From NCBI RefSeq assembly GCF_030013205.1, contig NZ_CP122648.1: a stretch of DNA of 64,000 nucleotides. One strand, 5' to 3'. The stretch is from Escherichia coli. GTDB taxonomy: Bacteria > Pseudomonadota > Gammaproteobacteria > Enterobacterales > Enterobacteriaceae. Shown here piece after piece: positions 7,197 through 38,298 of this stretch (its first letter is position 1; every line of letters starts with the position of its first letter). The notes beneath the pieces are model-generated. The model saw nothing but the letters and a program-made list of their open reading frames with translations. It did not search any database and was not told the origin of the DNA. Position numbers and translations under genes: made by a program.

Positions 7197-7208
7197 AATT
7201 CATATCAA

Positions 7209-7236
7209 CGGACCTCCACGGAGGTCCGTTTTTCGT
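7209..7236 (+). terminator. terminator hairpin downstream of pheU
   Basis: ggacctcc-acg-gaggtcc followed by T5. Confidence 0.6.
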
Positions 7237-7393
7237 TTCAGAACACCATGATTTAAGTGTTCTTCCTCCAAATCAATTCTACCGAACTCAACCAAATTCT
7301 CCCCACATCAACCTCATTGTGTGGGTATAATTGCGGGTATACCCCAGTTCGACAGAATTTATACCCTCTTTAACGCATTCAGAAGGCTGAACT

Positions 7394-8656
7394 ATGGCAC
7401 TGACTGACGCAAAAATCCGGGCTGCAAAGCCCACTGACAAGGCTTATAAACTCACTGACGGGGCCGGCATGTTCCTGCTGGTTCATCCTAATGGTTCCCG
7501 TTACTGGCGTCTCCGCTATCGTATTCTGGGTAAGGAGAAGACTCTGGCACTTGGTGTGTATCCAGAAGTTTCTCTCTCCGAAGCTCGTACAAAACGGGAT
7601 GAGGCCCGAAAACTGATTTCAGAGGGGATTGACCCTTGCGAACAGAAAAGAGCTAAAAAAGTTGTCCCTGATTTACAGCTCTCTTTTGAACATATTGCAC
7701 GACGCTGGCATGCCAGTAATAAACAATGGGCACAATCACACAGCGATAAAGTACTCAAAAGCCTCGAGACACACGTTTTCCCCTTTATCGGCAACCGGGA
7801 TATCACAACACTCAGTACCCCGGACCTGCTTATCCCTGTTCGTGCTGCAGAAGCTAAACAAATTTATGAAATCGCCAGTCGTCTGCAGCAAAGAATATCT
7901 GCTGTAATGCGTTATGCCGTACAGTCTGGCATCATCAGATATAACCCGGCTCTGGATATGGCTGGTGCATTGACCACGGTAAAACGCCAGCATCGCCCTG
8001 CACTGGATCTTTCACGCCTGCCTGAACTTCTGTCGCGTATTGACGGTTATAAAGGCCAGCCTGTCACCCGACTGGCAGTTATGCTGAATTTACTGGTTTT
8101 TATTCGTTCCAGTGAACTCAGATACGCCCGCTGGTCTGAAATTGATATTGACAATGCCATGTGGACTATTCCAGCCGAACGCGAACCTCTGCCTGGCGTA
8201 AAATTCTCACACCGGGGCTCCAAGATGCGAACACCACATCTTGTGCCACTCAGCAAACAGGCTGTAGCCATACTGGCAGAACTACAGACATGGGCTGGTG
8301 AAAATGGTCTGATCTTTACGGGAGCACATGACCCGCATAAACCAATCAGTGAAAATACTGTAAATAAAGCCCTGAGGGTGATGGGGTATGACACAACCCA
8401 GGATGTCTGTGGCCATGGATTCCGTGCGATGGCATGTAGTGCGCTGATCGAATCAGGTTTGTGGTCCCGCGATGCTGTTGAACGTCAGATGAGCCATCAG
8501 GAACGTAACGGTGTACGCGCTGCGTATATCCATAAAGCCGAACATCTGGAAGAACGCCGGCTGATGCTACAGTGGTGGGCAGATTTTCTGAATGCGAACA
8601 GAGAGAAATGTATCAGTCCGTTTGATTATGCAAAGATCAACAATCCATTAAAATAG
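7394..8656 (+). CDS. int: P4-type tyrosine integrase
   Basis: 420 aa directly downstream of tRNA-Phe; N-terminal MALTDAKIRAAKP... and C-terminal HGFRAMA...RAAY tyrosine-recombinase signature. Confidence 0.9.
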   Translation: MALTDAKIRAAKPTDKAYKLTDGAGMFLLVHPNGSRYWRLRYRILGKEKTLALGVYPEVSLSEARTKRDEARKLISEGIDPCEQKRAKKVVPDLQLSFEHIARRWHASNKQWAQSHSDKVLKSLETHVFPFIGNRDITTLSTPDLLIPVRAAEAKQIYEIASRLQQRISAVMRYAVQSGIIRYNPALDMAGALTTVKRQHRPALDLSRLPELLSRIDGYKGQPVTRLAVMLNLLVFIRSSELRYARWSEIDIDNAMWTIPAEREPLPGVKFSHRGSKMRTPHLVPLSKQAVAILAELQTWAGENGLIFTGAHDPHKPISENTVNKALRVMGYDTTQDVCGHGFRAMACSALIESGLWSRDAVERQMSHQERNGVRAAYIHKAEHLEERRLMLQWWADFLNANREKCISPFDYAKINNPLK

Positions 8657-8819
8657 TAATAATCCCCGGGCAAAATGCCCGGGGTACTTTGAATGACTAT
8701 TTTTCTTTGGGCGTGATGAAGAAGATTGATGGTAAGACAAATTACTCCCGACTCTTACGTATTTTCATGGAAAGAAATCCCCCAATATCATCCATCGGGA
8801 TCGAGTAATAACCTGTAAT

Positions 8820-9005
8820 ATGCTGCAGGTTCCGACAGCGGCGGCAAATATGCAGCACATATTGTGCTCACTGATCGGCACCTGCCGTCTGAACAATGCG
8901 GAGTCAGAAAAATTGCTGCATTACGTCACAGATCATATGCAGGACTGGTCGGCAAACCGGGTACGCGATCTGTTGCCCTGGAAAGTTGATCTGACCTCTC
9001 AGTAA
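8820..9005 (+). pseudogene. IS66-family transposase C-terminal fragment
   Basis: 61-aa ORF ...LIGTCRLN...LLPWKVDL matches the C-terminus of the larger IS66-like fragment at 9730-10251. Confidence 0.5.
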
Positions 9006-9069
9006 ATATCAATACGGTTCTGGCGAGCCGCTTACAATCGAACTGGGATACAGGGAGATAAAACAGACG

Positions 9070-9429
9070 ATGCAACTGAGCAGGCTGACGCTGAGAAGTA
9101 AAAAGCCGGAGCTTGTGGAGCAAGAGCTGTGGGGTGTCTTACTGGCTTATAATCTGGTGAGATATCAGATGATTAAAATGGCGGAACATCTGAAAGGTTA
9201 CTGGCCGAATCAACTGAGTTTCTCAGAATCATGCGGAATGGTGATGAGAATGCTGATGACATTGCAGGGCGCTTCACCGGGACATATACCGGAGCTGATG
9301 CGCGATCTTGCAAGTATGGGACAACTTGTGAAATTACCGACAATAAGGGAAAGGGCCTTCCCGAGAGTGGTAAAGGAGAGGCCCTGGAAATACCCCACAG
9401 CCCCGAAAAAGAGCCAGTCAGTTGCTTAA
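9070..9429 (+). pseudogene. DDE transposase C-terminal fragment (IS4-like)
   Basis: 119-aa truncated ORF resembling a DDE transposase C-terminal region; no N-terminal catalytic part. Confidence 0.4.
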
Positions 9430-9753
9430 CTGACTGGCATTAGGCCGCCGGGGGCGTTTTTTTACCACCGGGACTTCGGACATAACGGTGTTTTCAGTAA
9501 GTACGACAGGTACTGTGGAGGCACTCCCGTAAAGACGGGCATCAAGTTCCCGCTCCGACATACCTGCGGGCAGAGGCCATGAAAGGCCAGCTTTTCGGAA
9601 GCGCACGAACATACCACAAACTGTTGATTTTGGTACGCCCAGGCGACGTCCGGCCACAATCCGTGGTAAATGTTCTTCAAAGTGAAGACGTAAAGCTTCA
9701 GTGATCCAGGTCCGGTATTCCATACGATAGTGTCCATTAAAAATGATGGACAT
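9418..9753 (-). pseudogene. transposase N-terminal HTH fragment (family uncertain)
   Basis: 111-aa ORF with HTH-like segment (RRLGVPKSTV), embedded among IS debris. Confidence 0.3.
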
Positions 9754-10251
9754 TATTTTTGTGGAGCCGGAGGAAACACACCAGACTGTTTAAATGAGCC
9801 GGTTACCGAAATACGCGGGTTGCCGGTGTCTGAACGCCTGGCGGTCAGGCAAATGCAGAGTAAACCGCTACTGACTTCCCTGTATAAGCTGATGCAGGAG
9901 AAAGAACACACATTATCGAAAAAATGCCGTCTGAGAGATGCGTTCCGGTATATCCGGAAGCACTGGGTTGCGTTGTGCAACTTCTGTGATGATGGTCTGG
10001 CGGAGGCGGATAATAATGCCGCGGAAAGAGCGCTTCGTGCAGTCTGTCTCGGAAAGAAAAACTTTATGTTCTTCGGCAGCGATCACGGCGGCGAGCGAGG
10101 AGCACTGTTGTACGGGCTGATCGGCACCTGCCGACTGAACGGTATCGATCCGGAAGCGTATCTGCGCCATATCCTGAGCGTACTGCCGGAATGGCCTTCC
10201 AACCGAGTTGACGAACTCCTGCCATGGAACGTAGTACTCACCAATAAATAA
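9730..10251 (+). pseudogene. IS66-family transposase (TnpC) C-terminal fragment
   Basis: 173-aa ORF ending ...GIDPEAYLRHILSVLPEWPSNRVDELLPWN; gtaagcg-type end motif about 40 bp downstream. Confidence 0.6.
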
Positions 10252-10385
10252 GCGTCAATACGGCACTCCGTTAACGCTTACGTTTAAGTCATAAAGCCAT
10301 GCAGAACGCTCACCTCCCAAGATCTTGGTTTTTATAAGGTGTAATGATAATGTAAGCTAATGTTTCACATGCCAAAGGAAACACC

Positions 10386-11714
10386 ATGAGCCACAGGGAA
10401 TTGTTCAGCGAATTTCTTGAAAATTTGAATCTTGACCTCAAACAGGCAAAAAAGATCAGCTATCACTATCGAAAAATAACCAAGTCATTAAATCTTGCGT
10501 TCAGAGGAACGAGTTCCCGGGTAGCAAACCGCTTGAAAGTGGGGTCAGTAGGCAGACATACCGCAATAAAAGGCATATCCGATCTGGATATGCTTTATAT
10601 TATGCCCCCCAATCAGTATGAATATTATAACCGTAAGGATAATGGTCAGTCTGCATTGCTTACAGATGTCAGAAACATTCTGGCGGAAGAATATCCTGAC
10701 CAGACTGTGAAAAAGGACAGACTGGTTGTTCAGATCATCTTTAAAAACTTTTATGTCGAGGTTCAACCTGTATTCAGACAGGATGATGACAGCTTTAAAT
10801 TCCCTGAAAGCTATAATGGAGGAGCATGGCGCATTACAAAACCTCTTCACGAAAAGGCGGCCATGACCGCATTTTCGCGAGATAAATCCAATAATCTGCG
10901 CAAGCTGTGTAAAATGATCAGAGCCTGGAAGAACCTGCATGGCGTCAATATGGGTGGCTTACTGATAGACACACTAGCGTATCGCTTTCTTTCATCAACA
11001 TCAGATTATGACAATACCGGAAATGGCAGCCTGGGAGCCCTCGCCAGAGACTTTTTTGAATATCTGTCAAATGAGGAGAGAAAGGAAAGGTATCTCGCGT
11101 TAGGCAGTAATCAGCATGTACGTGTTAAATCTCCCTGGTTTGGCCGGGCAGCGAAACACGCGTATGAATTATGTTGTGATGCCTTAGACGCTGAGGGGGC
11201 TGCCAGTGAAAATGACCGCTGGCGCAAAGTGTTCGGACGAGCCTTCCCCAGACGTAAAGTGGGTATTATGGAAGCCCGTCTTGGTCTGGAATCGCATGCG
11301 GCAGATGCTGTTCCCTGGACCGATACCGAAGAGTTTATAGAGGATAAATATCCGGTGGATATCAGGTACTCACTCAACCTTGACTGTACCGTAACCCAGG
11401 ATGGTTTCCCTCCCAGAAGCCTGAGGGAGATGCTTACCAGAAGATTCCGCCTCTCCGCTCGAAAATCTCTCCTTTTCCGGGCAGACTTGACAGAAATGGA
11501 GGCAGAGGAACCCTACACCGTTATGTGGAAGGTACTGAACGTGGGTGACGAAGCACGCAGAAGAAATATGATCCGGGGACAAATCGTTTCGGACGGCGGC
11601 TACTGTACGAAGAAAGAAACTACCGACTTCCGCGGAGATCACATGGTAGAATGCTATGTGATAAAAAATGAGGTTGTGGTTGCCCGGGCCCAGATTGAAG
11701 TTCCCATAAGCTGA
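10386..11714 (+). CDS. Pol-beta-fold nucleotidyltransferase with C-terminal extension (SMODS/CD-NTase-like plus AGS-C-like region)
   Basis: ATG with SD aaagga; GS-x10-SDLD nucleotidyltransferase signature (VGSVGRHTAIKGISDLD); about 150-aa C-terminal extension; AT-rich gene. Confidence 0.6.
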   Translation: MSHRELFSEFLENLNLDLKQAKKISYHYRKITKSLNLAFRGTSSRVANRLKVGSVGRHTAIKGISDLDMLYIMPPNQYEYYNRKDNGQSALLTDVRNILAEEYPDQTVKKDRLVVQIIFKNFYVEVQPVFRQDDDSFKFPESYNGGAWRITKPLHEKAAMTAFSRDKSNNLRKLCKMIRAWKNLHGVNMGGLLIDTLAYRFLSSTSDYDNTGNGSLGALARDFFEYLSNEERKERYLALGSNQHVRVKSPWFGRAAKHAYELCCDALDAEGAASENDRWRKVFGRAFPRRKVGIMEARLGLESHAADAVPWTDTEEFIEDKYPVDIRYSLNLDCTVTQDGFPPRSLREMLTRRFRLSARKSLLFRADLTEMEAEEPYTVMWKVLNVGDEARRRNMIRGQIVSDGGYCTKKETTDFRGDHMVECYVIKNEVVVARAQIEVPIS

Positions 11715-11721
11715 GGTTTTT

Positions 11722-12297
11722 ATGACGCAATCAGAGATGCTGAAATTAATCGCCCGACATGGTTATAACGTTGGATTTGGCGCTAAGAAAAACTTTGCCA
11801 CCTATGATCTGATTTGTAAGGCATCCGGTTGGATTAGCTTTATTTCTCTTGCTGTCGGTGTGTTCGCCCTTTTTATTCCTGAGCTGGCCACAAACGTCAT
11901 TTCCGCGATATTAATTATATTTGGTGTTGCTACAATGTACATTCAGTTTTATGACTCGGAAAAGCAGAGTTATGAAAGTGCGGGGATTGAGCAGACCAAA
12001 ATTTTTAATGAACTTGAAGTCATCTACCGCAACGTAAAAAGCGATGCAAACTTTGACTATCAGCGTACACAACAATCCATCGACGCTATCATGTCCCGGT
12101 TTTACGGCACGGTCATCAGCAAACAGATCTTCGGAAGTAACTGGTACGCACATTATAAATTTTACTGTGAATTTGAAAAAGCATGGGTTGAAGAAGAGCT
12201 GAACCTGACACTGAAGGACAAAATCCCGCTTTCGCTCTGCTTTCTCGCCGGTCTGGCGATCATTTTTACTATAGCTGTCATCTGGAAAACGCCCTGA
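11722..12297 (+). CDS. small multi-TM membrane protein (SLATT-like predicted effector)
   Basis: 191 aa, starts 8 nt after the nucleotidyltransferase stop with SD gagg; two adjacent N-proximal hydrophobic helices and one C-terminal helix. Confidence 0.55.
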   Translation: MTQSEMLKLIARHGYNVGFGAKKNFATYDLICKASGWISFISLAVGVFALFIPELATNVISAILIIFGVATMYIQFYDSEKQSYESAGIEQTKIFNELEVIYRNVKSDANFDYQRTQQSIDAIMSRFYGTVISKQIFGSNWYAHYKFYCEFEKAWVEEELNLTLKDKIPLSLCFLAGLAIIFTIAVIWKTP

Positions 12298-12848
12298 TGC
12301 TGCAGCCAATGAAAAATTCAGCAAGCTGACTGTCAAATATGCGATGTATAGCCGGTATCACCATCCAGTGTACGTTCTATAAGGGGGGCGCTTGGAAAAC
12401 GGGTAGAGTCAAGATGTGGCGCGGTAATTTTACAGGTCAGGCATATCTGTTGCCGCCTCTTTCGATTGGCGGTGCCTTACTGTCCTGACCATAAATCCTG
12501 TTTCCACACCCCGCTCATCGAAGCGGACATGCGCTTCTAACACATCCGGCTCTCGGACAGAATCATGCCTTCGCCCACGGAAACCTCTGCGGGAGCTTCG
12601 GTGCATATTTTCATGGAAGGGGATCACCCAATAACTTCCATCGAGATCGGGTCATAACGGCCAATCCGTGATCGAATAGAGCGGAATACGCACTCTGACG
12701 AACTGCTTACATTTAAACTAATTACAAACTATATAAATCCGCCTTGCTCATTCACAGGGTAGATATATTCTTACTTTTAATTTTATGTGTAATTAACTGA
12801 TGACGAAAAATGAATTGAACTGTAAATGCATATCTAAGTTTTTCATTC

Positions 12849-13574
12849 TTATGATGTACATAATACCTTAAAATTATCAACTAGCTGAGCATTAACCTCC
12901 ATCTGACTAATCCCCCATAATGCGGCTAACTGTTTCTCTGCAATCCCACTATCCCATGGCATTAGTGGGTCATTACGAAACTTAGCAAATGGCCCATCTG
13001 TTTCTGTAAGAATGCGTGATTTGGGTATTTTCAAAACTAAGGCCTTACCCTTTATTGTATCGAGCATAGCAGGCCCCACTGAGAACCAGCATCCTAAATC
13101 AATTGCCCTTTCAAGCTGCTTAGGTGTTCCAGTGAACCAATGCAATATTGCCACCCCATCGATATTTTCAATCTCATCAAGCACCGCTGATGCACTTCCC
13201 CGACTATGGATAGTCATAATCTTGCCACCAGCCCGATTTACACTGTTGAGAATGTGTCGGAACACTTTCAATTGAATATCCCAATGTTCTTTAAATCCCT
13301 GTCCACCATCAAGCCCTATTTCCCCTACATACTTAGTTTCCGAAAGCAATGAATCAAACAGGTCTAACTCATGCGATCTTTGATGCGCGATTTGAGGATG
13401 TAGCCCAAGAGCAGTTCGGATTCGTTGACTTTCTTTAGCCAATAAAGAAGTACCATGCCATGCTTTAGGTGTTGTTGTCACCGACAGAATATAAGTCCCT
13501 CGACGTTTACTTTCTTCAGCCACGAGGTCTGGCCGAGGATATAAGTCTAGATGACAGTGCATATCGATGCTCAT
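12849..13574 (-). CDS. qatD: TatD-family metal-dependent DNase (QatD)
   Basis: 241 aa; N-terminal HxH metal motif (MSIDMHCHLDLYP); start ATG overlaps qatC stop (ATGA). Confidence 0.8.
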   Translation of the reverse strand: MSIDMHCHLDLYPRPDLVAEESKRRGTYILSVTTTPKAWHGTSLLAKESQRIRTALGLHPQIAHQRSHELDLFDSLLSETKYVGEIGLDGGQGFKEHWDIQLKVFRHILNSVNRAGGKIMTIHSRGSASAVLDEIENIDGVAILHWFTGTPKQLERAIDLGCWFSVGPAMLDTIKGKALVLKIPKSRILTETDGPFAKFRNDPLMPWDSGIAEKQLAALWGISQMEVNAQLVDNFKVLCTS

Positions 13575-14890
13575 ACTATGTTCTCACTCAGTAAATAGCT
13601 TTCAACCTCATCCAGGCCATCCTTAAATACTTGCTTGAAATTATCAAATTCTGCCGTAGGCAAAGGGCCACTTTTGGCAATCCATGTACCTATTTTCAAA
13701 GTCGATTTCTGCGTGATCGCAATCCTAAGGGCGATCAGGTCGTCCCTGCGATCTATTTCATTCATTACTTTAGCTAAGGACTGGAAAATATATTCAACAT
13801 CTCTACTAATTCCCCCTGCATGAAGTGATGCTCGTCGAATGATACACGGTATACATACCCCACATTGCTGCCCCATTCGTTTCCAATGACTGCAGGATAC
13901 TGTACTTTCCACAATTTTAGATAAGAGCTGCTTATTTGAACATTCGGAGATCATTTTTCCTTTTGTCTTAAACTGATATGGATTGATTATTTGACAAGAA
14001 ATACCGAGCGCATCAAAGATCTTTTGTATGCTCGTAATAAAATGTGGATGTGTTGTTCGTGTGCTCAGCGAACCTATCCGCCGTGGAGTAAGTGGTGCAT
14101 TTAATGAGATAAATCCATTTTCAGGTACGAACAAATCAATCTTTTCTTGTTGAGATATCTCTTGTACGGCACAAGCACCTACGGCCGCAAAGGCAAGAAA
14201 ATTGAGGCTACGAGTTCGCATCGTAATATCAGTCACGCCTTGATAAATGTGTGGGTCAGCATTAATCTCAAAGCGCGAAAATTGGCCACTTAATTTTTCA
14301 GCAATCTGATCTTGACGAGACTTATCCCCCTTATAAGCATGACTAACCAAAAGTGGAGCGCGCCCTGCAGCCAGAAGATCTATTGCACCAATAGCTGAAT
14401 CCAGACCTCCTGAAAATAGGCTGACACAGTCAAGCCCTTTTAGCTTAATCAGACGATGCCTTGAATGCTGGCTATAAGGCTCTGGCGGTGCATAACCATC
14501 GTCACAAAATTCGAAATCCCAGATGTCTCCACTAAGAAAATGCAAAGCACTCTCAAGTTCTTTCTTTAGACTAATCCATCTGGATGGTTCATGAAGGGGG
14601 AGTCGTAACGACAATTGGCGGGTCCAACCATCCTCGGAACTTTCACGCTGAACGAAAGTATCTGCTGCAGTTACTGCTAATGCAACACTCAGAAAATCCA
14701 TGACCTTAGCTGGAAGCTGTACTCCCAAACGTCTGATCCGATCAATCGCAGGATTCCCGATAACAGATATATCTCCGCGCCTCTGACCACTTAATCCATA
14801 TAGCTGAACAGGTAACACTTTCTCACTTGCTGGCGGCAAATGGTGATGTTTATGATGGAAAACTAATTGTGTCACTGGTATGCCTCCCAT
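13571..14890 (-). CDS. qatC: QueC-like PP-loop ATPase (QatC)
   Basis: 439 aa; PP-loop SGGLDS; C-terminal Cys cluster CSHW...CGVCIPC as in QueC. Confidence 0.8.
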   Translation of the reverse strand: MGGIPVTQLVFHHKHHHLPPASEKVLPVQLYGLSGQRRGDISVIGNPAIDRIRRLGVQLPAKVMDFLSVALAVTAADTFVQRESSEDGWTRQLSLRLPLHEPSRWISLKKELESALHFLSGDIWDFEFCDDGYAPPEPYSQHSRHRLIKLKGLDCVSLFSGGLDSAIGAIDLLAAGRAPLLVSHAYKGDKSRQDQIAEKLSGQFSRFEINADPHIYQGVTDITMRTRSLNFLAFAAVGACAVQEISQQEKIDLFVPENGFISLNAPLTPRRIGSLSTRTTHPHFITSIQKIFDALGISCQIINPYQFKTKGKMISECSNKQLLSKIVESTVSCSHWKRMGQQCGVCIPCIIRRASLHAGGISRDVEYIFQSLAKVMNEIDRRDDLIALRIAITQKSTLKIGTWIAKSGPLPTAEFDNFKQVFKDGLDEVESYLLSENIV

Positions 14891-15624
14891 TCTTGCCAGG
14901 CCTCAATAATGGCCTGACGTTCAATTTTTACCATTTGGTTTCGTGTGAACGATCTTATGTTACCGGCAAGTTTTGGTGCCATATGTTTATCAACAACAAC
15001 TTTAATCAATTCCCGGAGTTCAATTTCTGCATGAATTGCCTTTGAAGGTGTATCTGCTTTGTTCCATGCCCTATTAGAATCCATTACCATCTGAAGGAAA
15101 ATACTTTCCGCTAGATAACCAATCATTGTGTCAACAATCACACCATCAGTTATTTTTTGAGGATCGAAAATTTCTACGCCATCAAGAGCCTCCACTAAAG
15201 CATGGTTCATGGCCGCACAGATCTTTTCTGAGTCACCATCCTGTGATGTTAAAGCTTGAGCAATAGTTGATATTGCTATTTCGCATGGAAGGCCTGCCAA
15301 ACTGCCCAAATCGATGCTTGGTTCTCCGGGAGCCGAAGGCATTCCCACTAAAGCCCCAAATAATTCGGCCCCAGCTTGCGTGACACTCCCTAATCGCCGA
15401 GCAGCGTTACTGCTCCCTCCGGAGGCTTTTCGCGCGTAGTGCCCTATGGCTTTTCTGAAATCTGCTCGATTTCCATTTGATACCGCATTTCCCAACGATT
15501 CTCGAAATGGCGCAAACCTCCTTTCTTGCGGCGAGGGTAACGGTTGCTGTGGCTGATCATCAGCCCATGGTGGAACCAGCGGAGAGCCACCTCCTGGACC
15601 TTTACTTGATTGTGATGTTCCCAT
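14872..15624 (-). CDS. qatB: QatB (function unknown)
   Basis: 250 aa Gly/Pro-rich protein between the KAP ATPase and QueC-like genes; start overlaps qatA stop by 1 nt, 3' end overlaps qatC by 19 nt. Confidence 0.65.
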   Translation of the reverse strand: MGTSQSSKGPGGGSPLVPPWADDQPQQPLPSPQERRFAPFRESLGNAVSNGNRADFRKAIGHYARKASGGSSNAARRLGSVTQAGAELFGALVGMPSAPGEPSIDLGSLAGLPCEIAISTIAQALTSQDGDSEKICAAMNHALVEALDGVEIFDPQKITDGVIVDTMIGYLAESIFLQMVMDSNRAWNKADTPSKAIHAEIELRELIKVVVDKHMAPKLAGNIRSFTRNQMVKIERQAIIEAWQEWEAYQ

Positions 15625-17408: not shown

Positions 17409-17539
17409 TTTTATATCCTTTACATCACCAATTTTTACGTCATTGAGTAAACTACAGGTTTGATAAAACCAACTCTGTTCAGGTGGGCAAATTCAGTGTA
17501 CCACTTCATCAATAATCCAATATGATGACTGCTATAGAT

Positions 17540-20142: not shown

Positions 20143-20194
20143 AACGAAATCCCTGCCGGCAATCACACTGCCTGATGGCAGCATAATCCACTTA

Positions 20195-29389: not shown

Positions 29390-29432
29390 AAACGATCGAT
29401 AAAACAGGTATCGATCGCCATCATCGATCGTT
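29390..29432. promoter_or_regulatory. three clustered GATC sites upstream of Ag43 (Dam/OxyR phase-variation switch)
   Basis: GATC at 29394, 29413 and 29426 within 36 bp, about 220 bp upstream of the Ag43 start. Confidence 0.6.
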
Positions 29433-29646
29433 TATAGTGGTTAATGACCTGCGAAAAGGCAGTTGATTCTCTTCATCATGCAGAACGGAATTGCACACAA
29501 CGGACTGATGCTTCTCTGGCGGATGAGAGAGGGGAAGCATTTATGTCCGAGAAAAACCACTTTATCTGACCATGCTGTTTTGTACCTGCCGGTATCCACA
29601 TTTGTGGGTACCGGCTTTTTTATTCACCCTCTGTAAGGAAAAGCTG

Positions 29647-32493
29647 ATGAAACGACATCTGAACACCAGCTACAGGCTGGTATGGAATCACATTACGGGC
29701 ACCCTGGTGGTGGCTTCCGAACTGGCCCGCTCACGGGGGAAACGTACTGGCGTGGCGCTGGCGCTGTCTCTTGCCACCGCCACTTCAGTCCCGGCCCTGG
29801 CTGCTGACAGTGTTGTACAGGCAGGGGAAATCGTGAACGGCGGGACACTGGTAAATCATGACAACCAGATTGTCTTCGGTACGACCAACGGAATGACCAT
29901 CAGTACCGGGCTGGAGTATGGGCCGGATAACGAGGCCAATACCGGCGGGCAATGGGTACAGGATGGCGGCACAGCCAGTAATACCACCATCAGCAACGGC
30001 GGGCTCCAGTTTGTAGGTGCCGGGGGAAAGGCTACAGACACAATAATCAATGAAGGAGGCGGACAAAGTCTGAAGGGACTGGCACTGAACACCACGCTGA
30101 ATGGTGGCGAGCAGTGGATGCATGAAGGTGCGATAGCCACAGGAACCGTCATTAATGATAAGGGCTGGCAGGTCGTCAAACCCGGCGCAGTGGCAACAGA
30201 CACCGTTGTGAATACCGGCGCAGAAGGAGGACCGGATGCAGAAAATGGTGATACCGGGCAGTTTGTTCGCGGAAATGCCGTACGTACCACTATCAATAAA
30301 AATGGTCGTCAGATTGTGGTAGCCACCGGAGTGGCAAACACCACGGTGGTTTATGCCGGCGGCGACCAGACGGTACATGGCCACGCACTGGATACCACGC
30401 TGAATGGCGGTAACCAGTATGTGCACAACGGCGGTACAACGTCTGACACTGTTGTGAACAGTGACGGCTGGCAGATTATCAAGGAAGGTGGTCTGGCGGA
30501 TTTCACCACCGTTAACCAGAAAGGCAAACTGCAGGTGAACGCCGGTGGTACAGCCACGAATGTCACCCTGAAGCAGGGCGGCGCACTGGTCACCAGTACT
30601 GCTGCAACGGTTCTTGGCAGCAACCGTCTGGGGAATTTCACGGTGGAAAACGGTAAGGCTGACGGCGTTGTTCTGGAGTCCGGCGGTCGCCTGGATGTAC
30701 TGGAGGGCCATTCAGCGCAGAATACCCTGGTGGATGACGGCGGTACCCTGGCAGTGTCTGCCGGTGGTAAGGCAACAGATGTCACCATGACATCCGGTGG
30801 TGCCCTGATTGCAGACAGTGGTGCCACTGTTGAGGGGACCAATGCCAGCGGTAAGTTCAGTATTGATGGCATATCCGGTCAGGCCAGCGGCCTGCTGCTG
30901 GAAAATGGCGGCAGCTTTACGGTTAATGCCGGGGGACAGGCCGGTAACACCACTGTCGGATATCGTGGAACACTGACGCTGGCTGCCGGGGGAAGTCTGA
31001 GTGGCAGAACACAGCTCAGTAAAGGTGCCAGCATGGTACTGAATGGCGATGTGGTCAGTACCGGCGATATTGTTAACGCAGGGGAGATTCGCTTTGATAA
31101 TCAGACAACACCGGATGCCGCGCTGAGCCGTGCTGTTGCAAAAAGTAACTCCCCGGTAACGTTCCATAAACTGACCACCAGTAACCTCACCGGCCAGGGC
31201 GGCACCATCAATATGCGTGTCAGCCTTGATGGCAGTAATGCCTCAGACCAGCTGGTAATTAATGGTGGTCAGGCAACCGGCAAAACCTGGCTTGCGTTCA
31301 CAAATGTCGGAAACAGCAATCTCGGGGTGGCAACCTCCGGACAGGGTATCAGGGTTGTGGATGCACAGAATGGCGCCACCACAGAAGAAGGTGCGTTTGC
31401 CCTGAGTCGCCCGCTTCAGGCCGGCGCCTTTAACTACACCCTGAACCGTGACAGCGATGAAGACTGGTACCTGCGCAGTGAAAATACTTATCGTGCTGAA
31501 GTCCCCCTGTATGCCTCCATGCTGACACAGGCAATGGACTATGACCGGATTCTGGCAGGCTCCCGCAGCCATCAGACCGGTGTAAGCGGTGAAAATAACA
31601 GCGTCCGTCTCAGCATTCAGGGCGGTCATCTCGGGCACGATAACAACGGTGGTATTGCCCGTGGGGCCACGCCGGAAAGCAGCGGCAGCTATGGCTTCGT
31701 CCGTCTGGAGGGTGACCTGCTCAGAACAGAGGTTGCCGGTATGTCTCTGACGACAGGGGTGTATGGTGCTGCAGGCCATTCTTCCGTTGAAGTTAAGGAT
31801 GATGACGGCTCCCGCGCCGGCACGGTCCGGGATGATGCCGGCAGCCTGGGCGGATACCTGAATCTGGTACACACATCCTCCGGCCTGTGGGCTGACATTG
31901 TGGCACAGGGAACCCGCCACAGCATGAAAGCGTCATCGGACAATAACGACTTCCGCGCCCGGGGCTGGGGCTGGCTGGGCTCACTGGAAACCGGTCTGCC
32001 CTTCAGTATCACTGACAATCTGATGCTGGAGCCACAACTGCAGTACACCTGGCAGGGACTTTCCCTGGATGACGGCCAGGATAACGCCGGTTATGTGAAG
32101 TTCGGGCATGGCAGTGCACAACATGTGCGTGCCGGCTTCCGTCTGGGCAGCCACAACGATATGACCTTTGGTGAAGGCACCTCATCCCGTGACACCCTGC
32201 GCGACAGTGCAAAACACAGTGTGCGTGAACTGCCGGTGAACTGGTGGGTACAGCCTTCTGTTATCCGCACCTTCAGTTCCCGGGGTGACATGAGCATGGG
32301 GACAGCCGCTGCCGGCAGTAACATGACGTTATCACCGTCACAGAATGGCACGTCACTGGACCTGCAGGCCGGACTGGAAGCCCGTGTCCGGGAAAATATC
32401 ACCCTGGGGGTACAGGCCGGTTATGCCCACAGCGTCAGCGGCAGCAGTGCTGAAGGTTATAACGGTCAGGCCACGCTGAATGTGACTTTCTGA
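29647..32493 (+). CDS. flu: antigen 43 self-associating autotransporter
   Basis: 949 aa from ATG 29647 (MKRHLNTSYRLVWNH...); long Gly/Thr-rich beta-helix passenger and C-terminal beta-barrel. Confidence 0.9.
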   Translation: MKRHLNTSYRLVWNHITGTLVVASELARSRGKRTGVALALSLATATSVPALAADSVVQAGEIVNGGTLVNHDNQIVFGTTNGMTISTGLEYGPDNEANTGGQWVQDGGTASNTTISNGGLQFVGAGGKATDTIINEGGGQSLKGLALNTTLNGGEQWMHEGAIATGTVINDKGWQVVKPGAVATDTVVNTGAEGGPDAENGDTGQFVRGNAVRTTINKNGRQIVVATGVANTTVVYAGGDQTVHGHALDTTLNGGNQYVHNGGTTSDTVVNSDGWQIIKEGGLADFTTVNQKGKLQVNAGGTATNVTLKQGGALVTSTAATVLGSNRLGNFTVENGKADGVVLESGGRLDVLEGHSAQNTLVDDGGTLAVSAGGKATDVTMTSGGALIADSGATVEGTNASGKFSIDGISGQASGLLLENGGSFTVNAGGQAGNTTVGYRGTLTLAAGGSLSGRTQLSKGASMVLNGDVVSTGDIVNAGEIRFDNQTTPDAALSRAVAKSNSPVTFHKLTTSNLTGQGGTINMRVSLDGSNASDQLVINGGQATGKTWLAFTNVGNSNLGVATSGQGIRVVDAQNGATTEEGAFALSRPLQAGAFNYTLNRDSDEDWYLRSENTYRAEVPLYASMLTQAMDYDRILAGSRSHQTGVSGENNSVRLSIQGGHLGHDNNGGIARGATPESSGSYGFVRLEGDLLRTEVAGMSLTTGVYGAAGHSSVEVKDDDGSRAGTVRDDAGSLGGYLNLVHTSSGLWADIVAQGTRHSMKASSDNNDFRARGWGWLGSLETGLPFSITDNLMLEPQLQYTWQGLSLDDGQDNAGYVKFGHGSAQHVRAGFRLGSHNDMTFGEGTSSRDTLRDSAKHSVRELPVNWWVQPSVIRTFSSRGDMSMGTAAAGSNMTLSPSQNGTSLDLQAGLEARVRENITLGVQAGYAHSVSGSSAEGYNGQATLNVTF

Positions 32494-32820: not shown

Positions 32821-33639
32821 ATGCGATTAGCAAGTCGTTTTGGTCATGTAAACCAGATACGCCGTGACCGTCCGCTGACACATGAAGAACTGATGCACTA
32901 TGTACCCAGTATTTTTGGGGAAGATCGGCATACCTCCCGCAGTGAACGCTATGCGTACATTCCCACCATCACCGTACTGGAAAGCCTGCAGCGGGAAGGT
33001 TTTCAGCCATTCTTCGCCTGCCAGACCCGCGTGCGCGATCCGGGCCGCCGGGGATACACCAGACACATGCTGCGTCTGCGGCGGGCCGGGGAGATAACCG
33101 GACAACATGTCCCTGAAATTATTCTGCTCAACTCCCATGACGGTACCTCCAGCTACCAGATGCTGCCGGGTTACTTCAGATTCGTCTGCCAGAACGGCTG
33201 CGTCTGCGGTCAGTCTCTGGGGGAAGTCCGTGTGCCCCACCGGGGAAATGTGGTGGACAGAGTCATTGAAGGGGCTTACGAGGTAGTGGGCGTTTTTGAC
33301 CGGATTGAGGAAAAGCGTGATGCCATGCAGTCTCTGGTCCTGCCGCCACCGGCACGTCAGGCGCTGGCACAGGCGGCACTGACTTACCGTTATGGTGACG
33401 AACATCAGCCGGTCACCACCGCCGACATTCTGACGCCACGACGCAGGGAGGATTACGGTAAGGACCTGTGGAGTGCATATCAGACCATCCAGGAGAATAT
33501 GCTGAAAGGCGGGATTTCCGGTCGCAGCGCTAAAGGAAAACGTATCCACACCCGTGCCATTCACAGCATCGACACGGACATTAGGCTCAACCGCGCATTG
33601 TGGGTGATGGCAGAAACGCTGCTGGAGAGCCTGCGCTGA
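32821..33639 (+). CDS. DUF945/YfjQ-family protein
   Basis: 272 aa, SD aaggag; CP4-type island protein. Confidence 0.65.
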   Translation: MRLASRFGHVNQIRRDRPLTHEELMHYVPSIFGEDRHTSRSERYAYIPTITVLESLQREGFQPFFACQTRVRDPGRRGYTRHMLRLRRAGEITGQHVPEIILLNSHDGTSSYQMLPGYFRFVCQNGCVCGQSLGEVRVPHRGNVVDRVIEGAYEVVGVFDRIEEKRDAMQSLVLPPPARQALAQAALTYRYGDEHQPVTTADILTPRRREDYGKDLWSAYQTIQENMLKGGISGRSAKGKRIHTRAIHSIDTDIRLNRALWVMAETLLESLR

Positions 33640-33730
33640 TGCTGTTTCCCTGAAAGTGCAGCCCTGACTCACGTCTGTACCAGTCCCCAGGCATTCTTCC
33701 ATTCATTTGCTTTTTATAAGGAATAATCTC

Positions 33731-34216
33731 ATGACAACCTCTTCGCATAATTCCACCACACCTTCTGTTTCCGTAACCGCTGCATCAGGGAATAACCAGT
33801 CTCAACTGGTTGCCACTCCCGTCCCTGATGAACAGCGCATCAGTTTCTGGCCGCAGCACTTTGGCCTCATTCCACAGTGGGTGACCCTGGAGCCCCGTAT
33901 CTTCGGCTGGATGGACCGTCTGTGTGAAGACTACTGCGGTGGTATCTGGAATCTGTATACCCTGAACAACGGCGGGGCATTTATGGCACCCGAACCGGAT
34001 GACGATGATGACGAAACATGGGTACTGTTCAATGCCATGAACGGTAACCGCGCTGAAATGAGCCCGGAAGCCGCCGGTATTGCCGCCTGTCTGATGACGT
34101 ACAGCCATCATGCCTGTCGTACGGAGTGTTATGCCATGACGGTCCATTATTACCGGCTGCGGGATTACGCCCTGCAGCATCCTGAATGCAGCGCCATTAT
34201 GCGCATCATCGACTGA
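33731..34216 (+). CDS. antirestriction protein (YfjX/KlcA-like)
   Basis: 161 aa from ATG with SD aagga; acidic DDDDDE patch. Confidence 0.65.
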   Translation: MTTSSHNSTTPSVSVTAASGNNQSQLVATPVPDEQRISFWPQHFGLIPQWVTLEPRIFGWMDRLCEDYCGGIWNLYTLNNGGAFMAPEPDDDDDETWVLFNAMNGNRAEMSPEAAGIAACLMTYSHHACRTECYAMTVHYYRLRDYALQHPECSAIMRIID

Positions 34217-34230
34217 GCCGGAGAAGCACA

Positions 34231-34707
34231 ATGCAACAACTTTCCTTTCTGCCCGGAGAGATGACAACCAGAGAGCGCAGTCTCATTCTGCGGGCCCTGA
34301 AAACCCTGGACCGCCATCTTCATGAACCCGGTGTGGCCTTCACCTCCACGCATGCGGCACGGGAATGGCTGATTCTGAACATGGCAGGACTGGAGCGGGA
34401 AGAGTTCCGGGTACTGTATCTGAACAACCAGAATCAGCTGATTGCGGGTGAAACCCTCTTCACCGGCACCATCAACCGCACGGAGGTCCATCCCCGGGAA
34501 GTGATTAAACGTGCCCTGTACCACAATGCCGCTGCCGTGATACTGGCACACAACCACCCGTCCGGTGAAGTCACTCCCAGTAAGGCAGACCGGCTTATTA
34601 CGGAACGTCTGGTACAGGCACTGGCCATGGTGGATATCCGGGTGCCGGACCATCTGATAGTCGGTGGCAGCCAGGTTTTCTCCTTTGCCGAACACGGTCT
34701 GCTTTAA
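34231..34707 (+). CDS. RadC-like JAB-domain protein (YeeS/YfjY family)
   Basis: 158 aa; JAMM motif HNHPSGE. Confidence 0.8.
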   Translation: MQQLSFLPGEMTTRERSLILRALKTLDRHLHEPGVAFTSTHAAREWLILNMAGLEREEFRVLYLNNQNQLIAGETLFTGTINRTEVHPREVIKRALYHNAAAVILAHNHPSGEVTPSKADRLITERLVQALAMVDIRVPDHLIVGGSQVFSFAEHGLL

Positions 34708-34775
34708 CCCGTCACCGTCACAACCACATCACACCTGTTTTCACTTTTATCTTCTGTCTTCAGAGGTATCCCACC

Positions 34776-34997
34776 ATGAAAATTATCACCCGTGGTGAAG
34801 CCATGCGCATTCACCGTCAGCATCCGGCATCCCGTCTTTTTCCGTTCTGCACCGGTAAGTACCGCTGGCACGGCAGCACTGAGGCATATACCGGTCGTGA
34901 AGTGCAGGATATTCCCGGTGTGCTGGCCGTGTTTGCTGAACGCCGTAAGGACAGTTTTGGCCCGTATGTCCGGCTGATGAGTGTAACCCTGAACTGA
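34776..34997 (+). CDS. YeeT/DUF987-family protein
   Basis: 73 aa, SD gagg. Confidence 0.6.
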   Translation: MKIITRGEAMRIHRQHPASRLFPFCTGKYRWHGSTEAYTGREVQDIPGVLAVFAERRKDSFGPYVRLMSVTLN

Positions 34998-35015
34998 GTC
35001 AGGAAGGGAATTCTG

Positions 35016-35660
35016 ATGAGCAGAATTATCACCACCACCGTGTATACGCTGGATGAACTTTCCTGCCCGGCACGGGAAAAAGCCCGCGACGGGTACCGTC
35101 AGCATCATGCTGACAGCAACTGGTATGAAAACGTGTATGAAGACTTCAGGGAGGTCTGTGACATTTTCGGGATTAACCTCCGCCAGCGTGTTATCCGGCT
35201 CAGCAGTGGCAGGTTTATGGAAGAGCCGTGCATCTGGTTCAGCGGATTCTGCAGCCAGGGGGACGGAGCCTGTTTTGAAGGACGCTGGCACTGGCAGTCA
35301 GCAACAGCCAGGAGAATCCGGGAGTATGCCCCACAGGACCGTGAAATTCATCGTATCGCGGATGCCCTGCAGTCGGTACAGAAGCGTAACTTCTGGCAGT
35401 TACAGGCTGAAATCAGTCACCGGGGACGTTACTGCCATCCGTACAGCATGGATATCACCGTCACCCGGAACAGTCCGACTGGTCAGGTAATGACAACCGA
35501 TGCGGAAGCCGCTGTCAGCGAAGCCCTGCGCGACCTGGCCTTCTGGTTGTACCGTCAGCTGGAAAACGAGTACGACTGGCTGACCTCAGACGCCGCTGTG
35601 GATGAGGCCCTTCTCATCAACGAATACACCTTCACCGAAGCCGGTCTGCGCGCCGGCTGA
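35016..35660 (+). CDS. hypothetical protein (Cys/Trp-rich)
   Basis: 214 aa, SD ggaaggg; sits between yeeT-like gene and cbeA. Confidence 0.5.
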   Translation: MSRIITTTVYTLDELSCPAREKARDGYRQHHADSNWYENVYEDFREVCDIFGINLRQRVIRLSSGRFMEEPCIWFSGFCSQGDGACFEGRWHWQSATARRIREYAPQDREIHRIADALQSVQKRNFWQLQAEISHRGRYCHPYSMDITVTRNSPTGQVMTTDAEAAVSEALRDLAFWLYRQLENEYDWLTSDAAVDEALLINEYTFTEAGLRAG

Positions 35661-35709
35661 CTCGTCATCGTTAAACTATCATTCACCGATTTTCTGTGAG
35701 GATTTTATC

Positions 35710-36078
35710 GTGTCAGACACACTCCATGAAACAAATTATCCCGACGACAACAACGACCGCTCCTGGTGGGGGCTACCCTGCACCGTGACGCCCTGTTTCA
35801 GGGCACGTCTGGTGCAGGAAGGGAACCGGTTGCATTACCTTGCAGACCGTGCCGGTATCAGAGGCCGGTTCAGCGACGCGGATGCGTACCATCTGGACCA
35901 GGCCTTTCCGCTGCTGATGAAACAACTGGAACTCATGCTCACCAGCGGTGAACTCAGTCCCCGCCATCAGCATACCGTCACGCTGTATGCAAAAGGGCTG
36001 ACCTGCGAAGCCGACACCCTCGGCAGTTGTGGCTACGTTTATATGGCTGTTTATCCGACGCCCGAAACGAAAAAGTAA
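35710..36078 (+). CDS. cbeA: CbeA/YeeU-family type IV antitoxin
   Basis: 122 aa from GTG 35710 with SD gagga (MSDTLHETNYPDD...WWGLPCTVTPCF...). Confidence 0.8.
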   Translation: MSDTLHETNYPDDNNDRSWWGLPCTVTPCFRARLVQEGNRLHYLADRAGIRGRFSDADAYHLDQAFPLLMKQLELMLTSGELSPRHQHTVTLYAKGLTCEADTLGSCGYVYMAVYPTPETKK

Positions 36079-36167
36079 ATAATCAGAATAACCTTCTGCT
36101 CCGGCCAGGTGCTTTCACCACACCACTTTCCCATTTCTCATCTCTGCATATCAGGAAAATCTTCAGT

Positions 36168-36545
36168 ATGAAAACATTACCTGTATTACCCGGGCAGGCG
36201 GCCGGTTTACGCCCGTCTCCGGTTGAAATCTGGCAGACACTGCTTACCAGACTGCTGGACCAGCATTACGGCCTCACGCTGAATGACACGCCGTTTGCCG
36301 ATGAACGTGTGATTGAGCAGCATATTGAGGCAGGCATATCACTGTGTGATGCGGTGAACTTTCTCGTGGAAAAATACGCGCTGGTGCGTACCGACAAGCC
36401 GGGATTCAACGCCTGTACCCACTCTCAGTTAATAAACAGCATCGATATCCTCCGGGCCCGCCGGGCAACAGGCCTGATGACCCGCGACAATTACAGAACG
36501 GTGAACAATATCACCCGGGGTAAACATTCGGAGGCGAAACGATGA
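36168..36545 (+). CDS. cbtA: CbtA/YeeV-family toxin
   Basis: 125 aa (MKTLPVLPGQAAGLRPSPVEIWQ...) directly downstream of the antitoxin. Confidence 0.8.
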   Translation: MKTLPVLPGQAAGLRPSPVEIWQTLLTRLLDQHYGLTLNDTPFADERVIEQHIEAGISLCDAVNFLVEKYALVRTDKPGFNACTHSQLINSIDILRARRATGLMTRDNYRTVNNITRGKHSEAKR

Positions 36546-37030
36546 AACTGACCCTGACACTGGAAGCCGACAGTATTAATGTGCAGGCACTGAACATGGA
36601 GCGAATTGTTGTTGACGTCGATGGTATTGAGCTCGCTGAACTGATTAATAAGGTCGCTGAAAACGGTTATTCACTCCGCGTGGTGGATGCTCCCGAACAG
36701 CAGACAACGGATTCTCCACCATCGTTTACGGCCCTTACCGGCATACGCTGCAGTACCGCACATATCACGGAAAAGGATAACGCCTGGCTGTACTCGCTGT
36801 CACACCAGACCAGTGACTTCGGTGAATCAGAATGGATTCATTTCACAGGTAGCGGATATCTGTTACGTACCGATGCGTGGTCATATCCGGTTCTGCGGCT
36901 TAAACGCCTGGGGCTGTCAAAAACGTTCCGTCGTCTGGTTGTCACACTCATCCAACGTTATGGCGTCAGTCTCATTCATCTGGATGCCAGCGCTGAATGT
37001 CTGCCGGACCTGCCCACTTTCGACTGGTAA
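36542..37030 (+). CDS. YeeW-like protein
   Basis: 162 aa, start overlaps cbtA stop (ATGA). Confidence 0.55.
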   Translation: MKLTLTLEADSINVQALNMERIVVDVDGIELAELINKVAENGYSLRVVDAPEQQTTDSPPSFTALTGIRCSTAHITEKDNAWLYSLSHQTSDFGESEWIHFTGSGYLLRTDAWSYPVLRLKRLGLSKTFRRLVVTLIQRYGVSLIHLDASAECLPDLPTFDW

Positions 37031-37031
37031 C

Positions 37032-37239
37032 CAGGAACAACATGAAATCATTAACCACAGAAACCGCACTGGATATTCTGATTGCGTGGCTACAAGACAA
37101 TATCGACTGCGAATCGGGAATTATCTTTGACAACGATGAGGATAGAACGGATTCGGCAGCACTGTTGCCCTGTATCGAACAGGCCAGAGAGGATGTCCGT
37201 ACCCTGCGTCAGCTGCAGTTTCTGCAACAGAACCGGTGA
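37032..37239 (+). CDS. small island protein (YpjJ-like)
   Basis: 68 aa from ATG with SD agga. Confidence 0.4.
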
Positions 37240-37323
37240 GTCTTACTCACCAGACTTCATTCCACTGACGCCAGCCTGAATACGGCTGGCGTTTTCGTTT
37301 ATCTGCAAAAAGGAATATCGATT

Positions 37324-38166
37324 ATGTCTGAAATCACAGCCTCTCGTCCGGAAGTGGTCAACGGGCATACGGACGTTATCTGCTCAACCAGTATCCGCCA
37401 CATTCTGGCTGTACGAAAGAGTACATTGCTGCAAATCGACACACTTATCCGGCAACTGGCTGAAATATCAGCAATGACAGAAAGTATTGGAGGTAAAACG
37501 GCTCTGGACTGGGCCATGAAACAGGATTTTCGCTGCGGTTGCTGGCTGATGGAGAAACCGGAAACCGCAATGAAAGCCATCACACGCAATCTTGATCGCG
37601 AACTCTGGCGTGATCTGATGCAACGTTCCGGGTTGCTGAGTCTGATGGATGCGCAGACCCGGGACACATGGTACAGGTCACTGGAATATGATAATTTTCC
37701 GGAAATCAGCGAAGCGAACATTCTGAGCACATTTGAACAACTGCACCAGAACAAAGATGAAGTGTTTGAACGGGGAGTGATCAACGTCTTCAAAGGGCTG
37801 AGCTGGGATTACAAAACCAACTCACCCTGTAAATTTGGCAGTAAAATTATCGTCAACAATCTGGTGAGGTGGGACCAGTGGGGATTTCATCTTATCAGTG
37901 GAATGCAGGCAGATCGCCTGGCTGACCTGGAAAGAATGTTGCATCTGCTCAGCGGTAAACCGATCCCCGACAACCGGGGGAATATCACCATTAATCTGGA
38001 TGACCACATACAGTCCGTTCAGGGTAAAGGACGCTATGAAGATGAGATGTTCATCATTAAATACTTTAAGAAGGGATCTGCACACATCACTTTCAAAAGG
38101 CTGGAGCTGATTGACAGAATTAACGATATAATAGCTAGGCACTTTCCTTCTGTGCTCTCAGCCTGA
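37324..38166 (+). CDS. DUF4942-like island protein
   Basis: 280 aa, SD aaagga; family assignment from memory. Confidence 0.5.
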   Translation: MSEITASRPEVVNGHTDVICSTSIRHILAVRKSTLLQIDTLIRQLAEISAMTESIGGKTALDWAMKQDFRCGCWLMEKPETAMKAITRNLDRELWRDLMQRSGLLSLMDAQTRDTWYRSLEYDNFPEISEANILSTFEQLHQNKDEVFERGVINVFKGLSWDYKTNSPCKFGSKIIVNNLVRWDQWGFHLISGMQADRLADLERMLHLLSGKPIPDNRGNITINLDDHIQSVQGKGRYEDEMFIIKYFKKGSAHITFKRLELIDRINDIIARHFPSVLSA

Positions 38167-38276
38167 CCCCGAGTTTGATTCCCTTTCGATATCAAAAGGG
38201 ACTGCGGGTACAAAAGAGGGTACATCTTTCACCAAACCAAACAAAATAAACTAATATCAACATGATAGAAGCATTC

Positions 38277-38298
38277 TTCGATTCCGAGTCCGGCACCA
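38277..38298 (+). repeat. attR: duplicate of pheU 3' end
   Basis: ttcgattccgagtccggcacca matches 7174-7196 with one G fewer; flanking about 150 bp also resembles the region downstream of pheU. Confidence 0.75.

Follow-up and report, generated by a model that had tools for sequence, protein, structure and literature searches.

The question raised by this locus is what kind of element occupies the tRNA-Phe gene pheU of an Escherichia coli chromosome, and whether that element could still move. The DNA analysed, called the window below, is a stretch of 64,000 nucleotides (contig NZ_CP122648.1, assembly GCF_030013205.1), in which the span that follows pheU and closes with a right-hand repeat (7197-38298) measures 31,102 bp. 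We conclude, with a probability of about 0.8, that this segment is a 31.1-kb integrative island of the CP4-57/CP4-44 (GI-pheU/pheV) family, which has inserted into the 3' end of pheU and is unable to transfer itself. The comparisons were made with a set of 5,426 complete E. coli genomes, and gene names are those given by the annotation pipeline PGAP to an identical locus (L001), in which the island contains 37 genes.

A preliminary description of the window had placed an island of about 31 kb between the 3' end of pheU and a 22-nt duplicate of that end, with a P4-type integrase at the tRNA-proximal side. Both boundaries and the integrase were confirmed, with the amendment that the repeat is imperfect. 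The features that define the ends are the following.

7121-7196, plus strand: pheU, tRNA-Phe(GAA) (the single tRNA found by ARAGORN; Rfam tRNA, 68 bits).
7174-7196, plus strand: attL core, the last 23 nt of pheU, TTCGATTCCGAGTCCGGGCACCA.
7197-7393, plus strand: island leader upstream of the integrase gene int.
7394-8656, plus strand: P4-type tyrosine integrase, intact, 420 aa (Pfam Arm-DNA-bind_3, Phage_int_M and Phage_integrase; PHROG 1, integrase).
38277-38298, plus strand: attR, which repeats the tRNA 3' end imperfectly, TTCGATTCCGAGTCCGGCACCA (also written TTCGATTCCGAGTCCGG-CACCA).

The attR sequence matches the attL core at 22 of 23 nt, one G being missing. A 15-nt att core was searched for on the identical locus L001 and occurs only twice in the island region, at attL and attR; there is therefore no internal att site. 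The open reading frame (ORF) of the integrase begins 198 nt after the tRNA. Its product is 36% identical to IntA of CP4-57 (tblastn), and an allele that is 96.7% identical is present at pheV in strain 200112.

The exactness of the boundaries was assessed with a synthetic empty site, made by joining the 600 nt to the left of 7196 to the 600 nt to the right of 38298. This junction is contiguous in 3,715 of the 5,426 genomes. In strain E21, the closest genome with an empty site, the identity is 100% over 1,041 nt across the junction, up to an unrelated insertion sequence (IS), IS1. Moreover, in genomes with an empty site the similarity on the right-hand side begins exactly at position 38277 (query position 378). 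The preliminary description had named a lack of empty-site alleles in relatives as grounds for giving up the island; since such alleles are abundant, those grounds do not apply. The locus thus combines an insertion at the 3' end of a tRNA-Phe gene, flanked by a repeat, with an adjacent P4-type integrase and an exact empty site.

Similarity between the two ends extends about 130 nt past the 22-nt repeat, because the site holds the relic of an older, related island directly after attR and outside the present one.

38299-38743, plus strand: older related-island relic (blastn, tblastn and K-12 annotation).
38299-38431, plus strand: relic leader, 89% identical to the island leader at 7197-7329.
38494-38743, plus strand: remnant of the 3' end of a relic integrase gene; its identity to the final ~190 nt of int and the sequence downstream of them is about 71%.

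The relic corresponds to the pseudogene yjdQ of K-12. It is found at occupied and unoccupied pheU sites alike, and in empty-site genomes PGAP annotates it as an "integrase" pseudogene; hence this site has served for insertion at least twice. In E21, an IS1 with a 9-bp target duplication lies inside the yjdQ relic, about 440 nt after pheU.

The relic raises the possibility that two or more independent elements lie in tandem at pheU, as does the observation that in other strains the LEE (locus of enterocyte effacement) comes after the attR of an island of this kind. However, the relic lies outside 7197-38298, the att core is present in two copies only, and there is one integrase. Neither an internal att copy nor a second integrase remnant was found within 8700-38200, and the gene order from int to the DUF4942 gene at the right end matches that of CP4-57, which is a single element. 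We consider a tandem arrangement very improbable.

We next consider the family to which the island belongs. Outside its integrase-proximal cargo, the island consists of the following features, named by PGAP unless other evidence is given.

19951-20142, plus strand: DUF4222 protein.
20195-20428, 20524-21147 and 21281-21451, minus strand: hypothetical proteins.
21457-21870 and 21867-22250, minus strand: two zinc-ribbon proteins.
22510-23079, minus strand: inovirus-Gp2/YfjJ-family protein.
23819-24031, minus strand: Hha homologue (Hha/YmoA-family nucleoid-associated regulator).
24734-24940, plus strand: AlpA-type excisionase/regulator (PHROG excisionase; no tblastn match to AlpA of CP4-57).
25026-25598, plus strand: hypothetical protein.
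25713-27218, minus strand: YfjI/DUF3987 helicase-like protein (Pfam DUF3987, E 3e-96; PHROG DNA helicase).
27219-28402: AT-rich non-coding spacer of about 1.2 kb (about 38% GC) between yfjI and the GTPase gene, 87% conserved in an island at argW.
28403-29275, plus strand: YeeP/YfjP-family GTPase, 97% identical to the yeeP fragment of K-12 and 49% to YfjP.
29392-29628, plus strand: IsrC/IS102 RNA (Rfam RF00124, 68 bits).
29647-32493, plus strand: Ag43/Cah autotransporter adhesin, 948 aa, 73% identical to Flu of K-12.
32821-33639, plus strand: DUF932 protein.
33731-34216, plus strand: antirestriction protein.
34231-34707, plus strand: RadC (also NCBIfam RadC).
34776-34997, plus strand: DUF987 protein.
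35016-35660, plus strand: 214-aa protein between the DUF987 protein and the YeeU-family antitoxin.
35710-36078, plus strand: YeeU/CbeA-family antitoxin.
36168-36545, plus strand: CbtA-family toxin.
36542-37030, plus strand: DUF5983 protein.
37042-37239, plus strand: DUF957 protein.
37324-38166, plus strand: DUF4942 protein.

The preliminary description had recognised a P4/CP4-57-like core (AlpA, DUF3987, YfjJ-family and zinc-ribbon proteins) and a CP4-44-like accessory block (YeeP, Ag43, antirestriction, RadC and CbeA/CbtA). The contents of both were recovered, those of the core by PGAP, Pfam and PHROG and those of the block by PGAP. Its further claim, that core, block and defence cargo are three separate modules of a mosaic, held for the cargo (10066-19234), where the mosaic is real, but not for the other two, because CP4-57 has both. 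In K-12 the order of CP4-57 is int, alpA, yfjI, yfjJ, a defence slot (abpAB, rnlAB), yfjP, yfjQ, antirestriction, RadC-like, DUF987, antitoxin and toxin, and the right arm of the pheU island follows the same order. By tblastn, 10 island proteins match CP4-57 at 36-78% identity and eight match CP4-44 at 60-97%. The right arm is 73-97% identical to its CP4-44 homologues; within it, the "yee" arm (32821-38166) is 63-78% identical to CP4-57 and 87-96% to CP4-44. Judged by gene order and similarity, the core and the CP4-44-like block are one backbone, as in CP4-57, and CP4-44 is a truncated copy of that backbone. The pheU island thus shares the backbone genes of the CP4-57/CP4-44/CP4-6 family.

The likeness to CP4-57 includes a P4-type integrase beside an RNA gene, alpA, yfjI, yfjJ, a defence slot and the right-arm genes. 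The two differ in their target, which is ssrA for CP4-57 and pheU here, and in the position of the defence cargo, which follows yfjJ in CP4-57 and lies between int and the core in the pheU island. In addition, the core genes are partly inverted relative to CP4-57, Ag43, the zinc-ribbon genes, Hha and DUF4942 are extra, and the cargo consists of a cyclic oligonucleotide-based antiphage signalling system (CBASS) and Qat.

Several details of the backbone deserve mention. An inverted-repeat scan of four non-coding stretches for oriT-like structures returned a single palindrome, of 36 nt (27249-27284), which adjoins the start of yfjI; the 27219-28402 spacer, in which it lies, could serve in regulation or as an origin. 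Where the island is AT-rich, its Hha homologue could influence silencing by H-NS. At the 5' end of the IsrC region and upstream of the Ag43 gene, three GATC sites (29394-29430) correspond to the Dam/OxyR phase switch of agn43. Rfam models matched only the tRNA and the IsrC/IS102 RNA on the island. For the 214-aa protein, searches of Pfam, NCBIfam and PADLOC gave no match, and it has no counterpart in CP4-44 or CP4-57.

The integrase and the AlpA-like regulator also invite comparison with a P4-like satellite or a phage-inducible chromosomal island (PICI), which a helper phage would package by means of dedicated capsid-redirecting or packaging genes. YfjI points the same way, as it matches a phage helicase family and, weakly, a PHROG primase family. 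The position of the defence cargo next to the integrase resembles the reported defence hotspot of P4. On the other side, P4 has little more than a third of the length of this 31-kb island. Neither the PGAP annotation (37 genes) nor the PHROG core scans contained psu, sid, delta, P4 alpha primase, capsid, terminase or cos-related genes, cos itself not having been searched for, and the same two sources contained no PICI packaging or capsid-morphogenesis genes. The backbone, moreover, is of the CP4-57/CP4-44 type, not of the P4 type. Relaxase, type IV coupling protein and type IV secretion system genes are likewise missing from the PGAP annotation of the island genes. We therefore rejected the readings as P4 satellite and PICI for want of hallmark genes in PGAP and PHROG; packaging by dedicated satellite genes in particular is highly unlikely. 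An integrative and conjugative element is improbable on the same grounds, although for an integrative and mobilisable element there may be an oriT, or a relaxase-like nicking activity of the Gp2-family protein. P4-like satellites with defence hotspots (Rousset et al. 2022) share with the pheU island a P4-family integrase, tRNA targeting and variable defence cargo; they differ in having psu, sid, delta and alpha, which are not among the annotations of the pheU island, and in being much smaller.

The integrase-proximal region carries the defence genes, as the preliminary description had claimed for 10386-18742, and PADLOC identified CBASS and Qat there. The region comprises the following features.

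8825-10251: IS debris, namely IS4-family transposase, IS66 TnpA and IS66 transposase fragments (PGAP).
10386-11714, plus strand: CBASS oligonucleotide cyclase (CD-NTase/SMODS), 442 aa (PADLOC Cyclase PDLC00796, E 9e-177, full length).
11722-12297, plus strand: SLATT/2TM membrane effector, 191 aa (PADLOC Effector 2TM, E 2e-82; NCBIfam SLATT_6, 224 bits, over the cut-off).
12849-13574, minus strand: qatD (PADLOC QatD, E 6e-97, full length).
13571-14890, minus strand: qatC (PADLOC QatC, E 2e-140, full length).
14872-15624, minus strand: qatB (PADLOC QatB, E 9e-131, full length).
15624-17408, minus strand: qatA (PADLOC QatA, 1133 bits, full length).
17540-18742, minus strand: ORF400, 400 aa, with a Cys/His motif at its N terminus, an OB-like domain, an (AEV)n linker and, at its C terminus, a short helix.
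17628-17760, within ORF400: perfect 9-nt in-frame tandem repeat, 14.8 copies, encoding (AEV)n (TRF).
18981-19238, minus strand: fragment of a type VI secretion system (T6SS) VasL-domain gene (PGAP).

Between 10251 and 12849 there are no genes besides those for the cyclase and the effector, and neither Cap2/Cap3 nor HORMA/TRIP13 is present. The cyclase scores 100 bits with NCBIfam CBASS_cyclase_b, under the cut-off of 200 bits. On gene content and profile matches, the pair is assigned to type I CBASS. The four qat genes, contiguous on one strand in the order qatDCBA, are predicted to be a QatABCD anti-phage system, composed of the KAP NTPase QatA, QatB, the QueC-like QatC and the TatD-like QatD; with the NCBIfam models, QatC and QatD score over the cut-offs and QatA and QatB under them.

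A block that spans this cargo (10066-19234) is 99.7% identical in the argW island of strain EC361 (positions 8001-17251 of that locus, L003), while the backbone to its right is 83-95% identical and the EC361 island has a different integrase. The exchanged block contains an IS66 fragment, CBASS, Qat, ORF400 and the VasL fragment, and its left edge (10066) falls inside the IS66 fragment. The right edge coincides with a deletion junction (19234/19235), at which an extra 219 nt (L003) or 5.4 kb (L007, 21289-26751) of DNA is present in other islands. The 5.4-kb segment encodes a 3'-5' exonuclease, a GIY-YIG nuclease and further T6SS (ImpA/VasL) fragments; the two nucleases, which lie at the deletion point and are not in the window, may be another defence pair. 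The cargo block is also present in a larger island of MSI001, and in another strain the same island front is fused to the LEE. Taken at the level of nucleotide identity, these data point to a recent movement of the cargo block between islands with different integrases.

Base composition bears on the mosaic as well. The preliminary description had noted segments that are AT-rich relative to the flanks as a sign of horizontal acquisition. This is true of ORF400 (34.6% GC), of the 27288-28402 stretch in the spacer (37.6%) and of Qat (43.8%), but the island as a whole has a GC content of 48.4%, equal to that of the right flank (48.4%), the left flank having 50.7%. We therefore rejected AT-richness of the whole island as evidence of foreign origin. 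The GTPase-Ag43 arm reaches 56.4%, and this internal heterogeneity supports a mosaic origin.

The missing G of attR is informative about the history of the site. The same imperfect attR is present, identical, in four other, diverged pheU islands (L010-L013), and the right junction with this attR is common to 710 genomes. The same imperfect 23-bp right repeat, TTCGATTCCGAGTCCGG-CACCA, is tabulated for many GI-pheV islands (PMC11537424). These observations suggest that the attP of the GI-pheU/pheV family itself carries the imperfect core, in its 22-nt version. As pheV islands of unrelated lineages have the same attR, a core borne by attP fits better than a single mutation after insertion. Strand exchange would then be placed 3' of the indel, so that the tRNA remains intact at attL.

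By analogy with the biology of CP4-57 and P4, Int would recombine the attP of the island with the 3' end of pheU, restoring the tRNA at attL and leaving the imperfect, attP-derived copy at attR, and AlpA would induce int and excision of the island to a circle. The excised form may be replicated or nicked by YfjI, which is helicase-like, and by the Gp2-family protein. To pass from one cell to another, the island would depend on a helper, either a phage that transduces it or a conjugative element, because neither PGAP nor PHROG gave capsid, packaging, relaxase or type IV secretion system genes on the island. In a new host, the antirestriction and RadC genes may protect the incoming DNA during establishment, CbeA/CbtA would stabilise the island, and the CBASS and Qat cargo would give the host phage resistance of the abortive-infection type.

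Several observations weigh against an island that still moves in this way. When the right end was joined to the left end as a synthetic attP junction, none of the 5,426 genomes contained a circular or tandem form of it; the three matches with at least 80% coverage of this query are a pheV int fragment and LEE-bearing islands in which a longer leader follows attR. A defect such as the indel in attR can cut the excision frequency by orders of magnitude (PMC11537424, discussion). The IS debris, the deleted T6SS fragment and the internal deletion at 19234 are signs of decay. The 710 genomes with the same right junction and attR could go back to one ancient insertion followed by homologous exchange, and not to repeated integration. 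Finally, no transfer genes and no helper were identified for the island.

Much of this evidence would equally be expected of a fixed, decaying "cryptic" remnant that no longer excises. In that case a single old insertion would have been passed on or lost through homologous recombination in the flanking core genes, and its cargo swapped with that of related backbones by homologous or IS-mediated recombination. The constancy of the imperfect attR in the four diverged islands and at the junction of the 710 genomes, the IS and T6SS gene fragments, the internal deletion, the lack of an attP-type junction in any complete genome and the position of the cargo edge within an IS66 fragment all agree with such a remnant. 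Against it, the ORFs of int, alpA, yfjI and the Gp2-family gene are all intact, and the empty site can be placed to the single base, its sequence in the near relative E21 being 100% identical. The recurrence of the same imperfect attR at pheV in unrelated lineages (PMC11537424) is not in favour of a remnant either, and the related CP4-57 excises in K-12, as cited in PMC12595487. Because no attP junction was found in the complete genomes, activity of the island is regarded as a putative trait, and a fixed remnant, although unlikely, keeps an appreciable share of the probability. We prefer the reading as an integrative island that would rely on a helper for its transfer.

The site and the class of this island have been described before. 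The tRNA-Phe site between yjdC and cadC is the E. coli defence-island hotspot #38 (Hochhauser et al. 2023, PMC10121019, supplement), and the same study describes integrase-only defence islands whose mode of mobilisation is not known. The pheU island occupies this site and is of this class, with an integrase, defence genes and no recognisable transfer genes; hotspot #38 is a catalogue entry, without a dissection of this island or its backbone. With the GI-pheV/GI-pheU islands of PMC11537424, a group that takes in the K-12 remnant CP4-44, it shares the tRNA-Phe target, intP4, the imperfect right repeat, the flu/yee modules and a mosaic separated by IS elements. In that study most GI-pheV islands are carriers of modules for virulence or fitness (iuc, sat, nan, pap, LEE-associated), whereas the pheU island has defence cargo and is small (31 kb).

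In Pseudomonas, islands with Int, AlpA, Gp2 and RadC at tmRNA and tRNA genes are transduced by a helper jumbo phage (PMC12595487). These IntY-AlpA-Gp2-RadC islands and the Vibrio "phage defence elements" share with the pheU island a terminal tyrosine integrase, AlpA, an inovirus-Gp2-like protein, RadC, defence cargo, direct repeats and a lack of autonomous transfer genes. The islands of PMC12595487 differ in genus, target and sequence, and helper transfer, demonstrated there, is only inferred for the pheU island.

The part of the cargo without an assigned function is ORF400. Among the genomes with computed spans, its locus is up to 54 nt shorter or up to 450 nt longer than in the window; the difference is in every case divisible by 9 and is seen even between nearly identical porcine strains of enterotoxigenic E. 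coli (ETEC), and the (AEV)n copy number ranges from roughly 9 to 65. Homologues have other linkers, for example (PE)n. Many ORF400 copies in the databases are "partial" and stop at or just ahead of the repeat region, which suggests that contigs break there. Pfam and NCBIfam gave no match to ORF400. Its homologues form only 19 clusters, in Enterobacterales and Vibrio, and there are many uncharacterised structural relatives of about 300 aa across phyla.

ORF400 shows a weak match to the PADLOC profile PD-Lambda-4_B (E 4e-6 over 80 residues), and a Vibrio homologue matches the whole profile. ORF400 would thus be a very distant relative of PD-Lambda-4_B. PADLOC scans of the island cargo genes, and of a few genes that neighbour homologues, gave no PD-Lambda-4 A-like gene, and the main text of the Vassallo preprint does not contain details of PD-Lambda-4.

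A role as a fifth Qat component was considered for ORF400 and rejected. The two do co-occur in E. coli (277 versus 258 genomes), but this reflects linkage on a block that is at least 99% identical in most of these genomes, and Qat is not found next to the homologues in Xenorhabdus, Providencia, Vibrio, Klebsiella, Citrobacter, Enterobacter and Yersinia. Outside E. coli, the homologues lie beside type I restriction-modification genes, or have the VasL end of a T6SS cluster on one side and a P4-type integrase on the other; the latter context explains the VasL fragment beside ORF400 in the pheU island. We tentatively propose, as a speculative possibility, that ORF400, which in E. coli always accompanies Qat, might be an anti-phage DNA-sensing protein in which an OB/HIN-like domain binds nucleic acid and the (AEV)n repeat acts as a fast-evolving spacer that tunes reach or specificity.

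The chromosomal setting is that of E. coli, with the gene order aspA-dcuA-cutA-dsbD-dicD(yjdC)-pheU, the island, and then cadCBA on to adiC. Two pairs of direct repeats in the window lie outside the island and correspond to paralogous core genes: 3203-3288 and 52339-52424 to dcuA/dcuB, and 43619-43668 and 60205-60254 to the decarboxylase genes cadA/adiA. The window equals the sequence of the porcine ETEC strain ETEC4079 (NZ_CP122643.1), except for one mismatch and seven fewer copies of the 9-nt repeat. At a coverage of at least 80%, the island is present in 20 of the 5,426 genomes, mostly porcine ETEC and Shiga toxin-producing E. coli (STEC).

The site, the imperfect attR, the flu/yee modules, CBASS and Qat have all been published already and, given the literature on hotspot #38, on integrase-only islands and on helper transduction, the pheU island is another instance of a well-described kind. 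How integrase-only islands move between cells is a question common to the whole class. The locus leaves current understanding unchanged and provides a clean, well-bounded example of the CP4-57-family tRNA-Phe islands that carry phage-defence cassettes. It marks a porcine ETEC/STEC lineage, and its 9-kb defence cassette (type I CBASS, Qat and ORF400) appears to have moved almost unchanged between pheU and argW islands.

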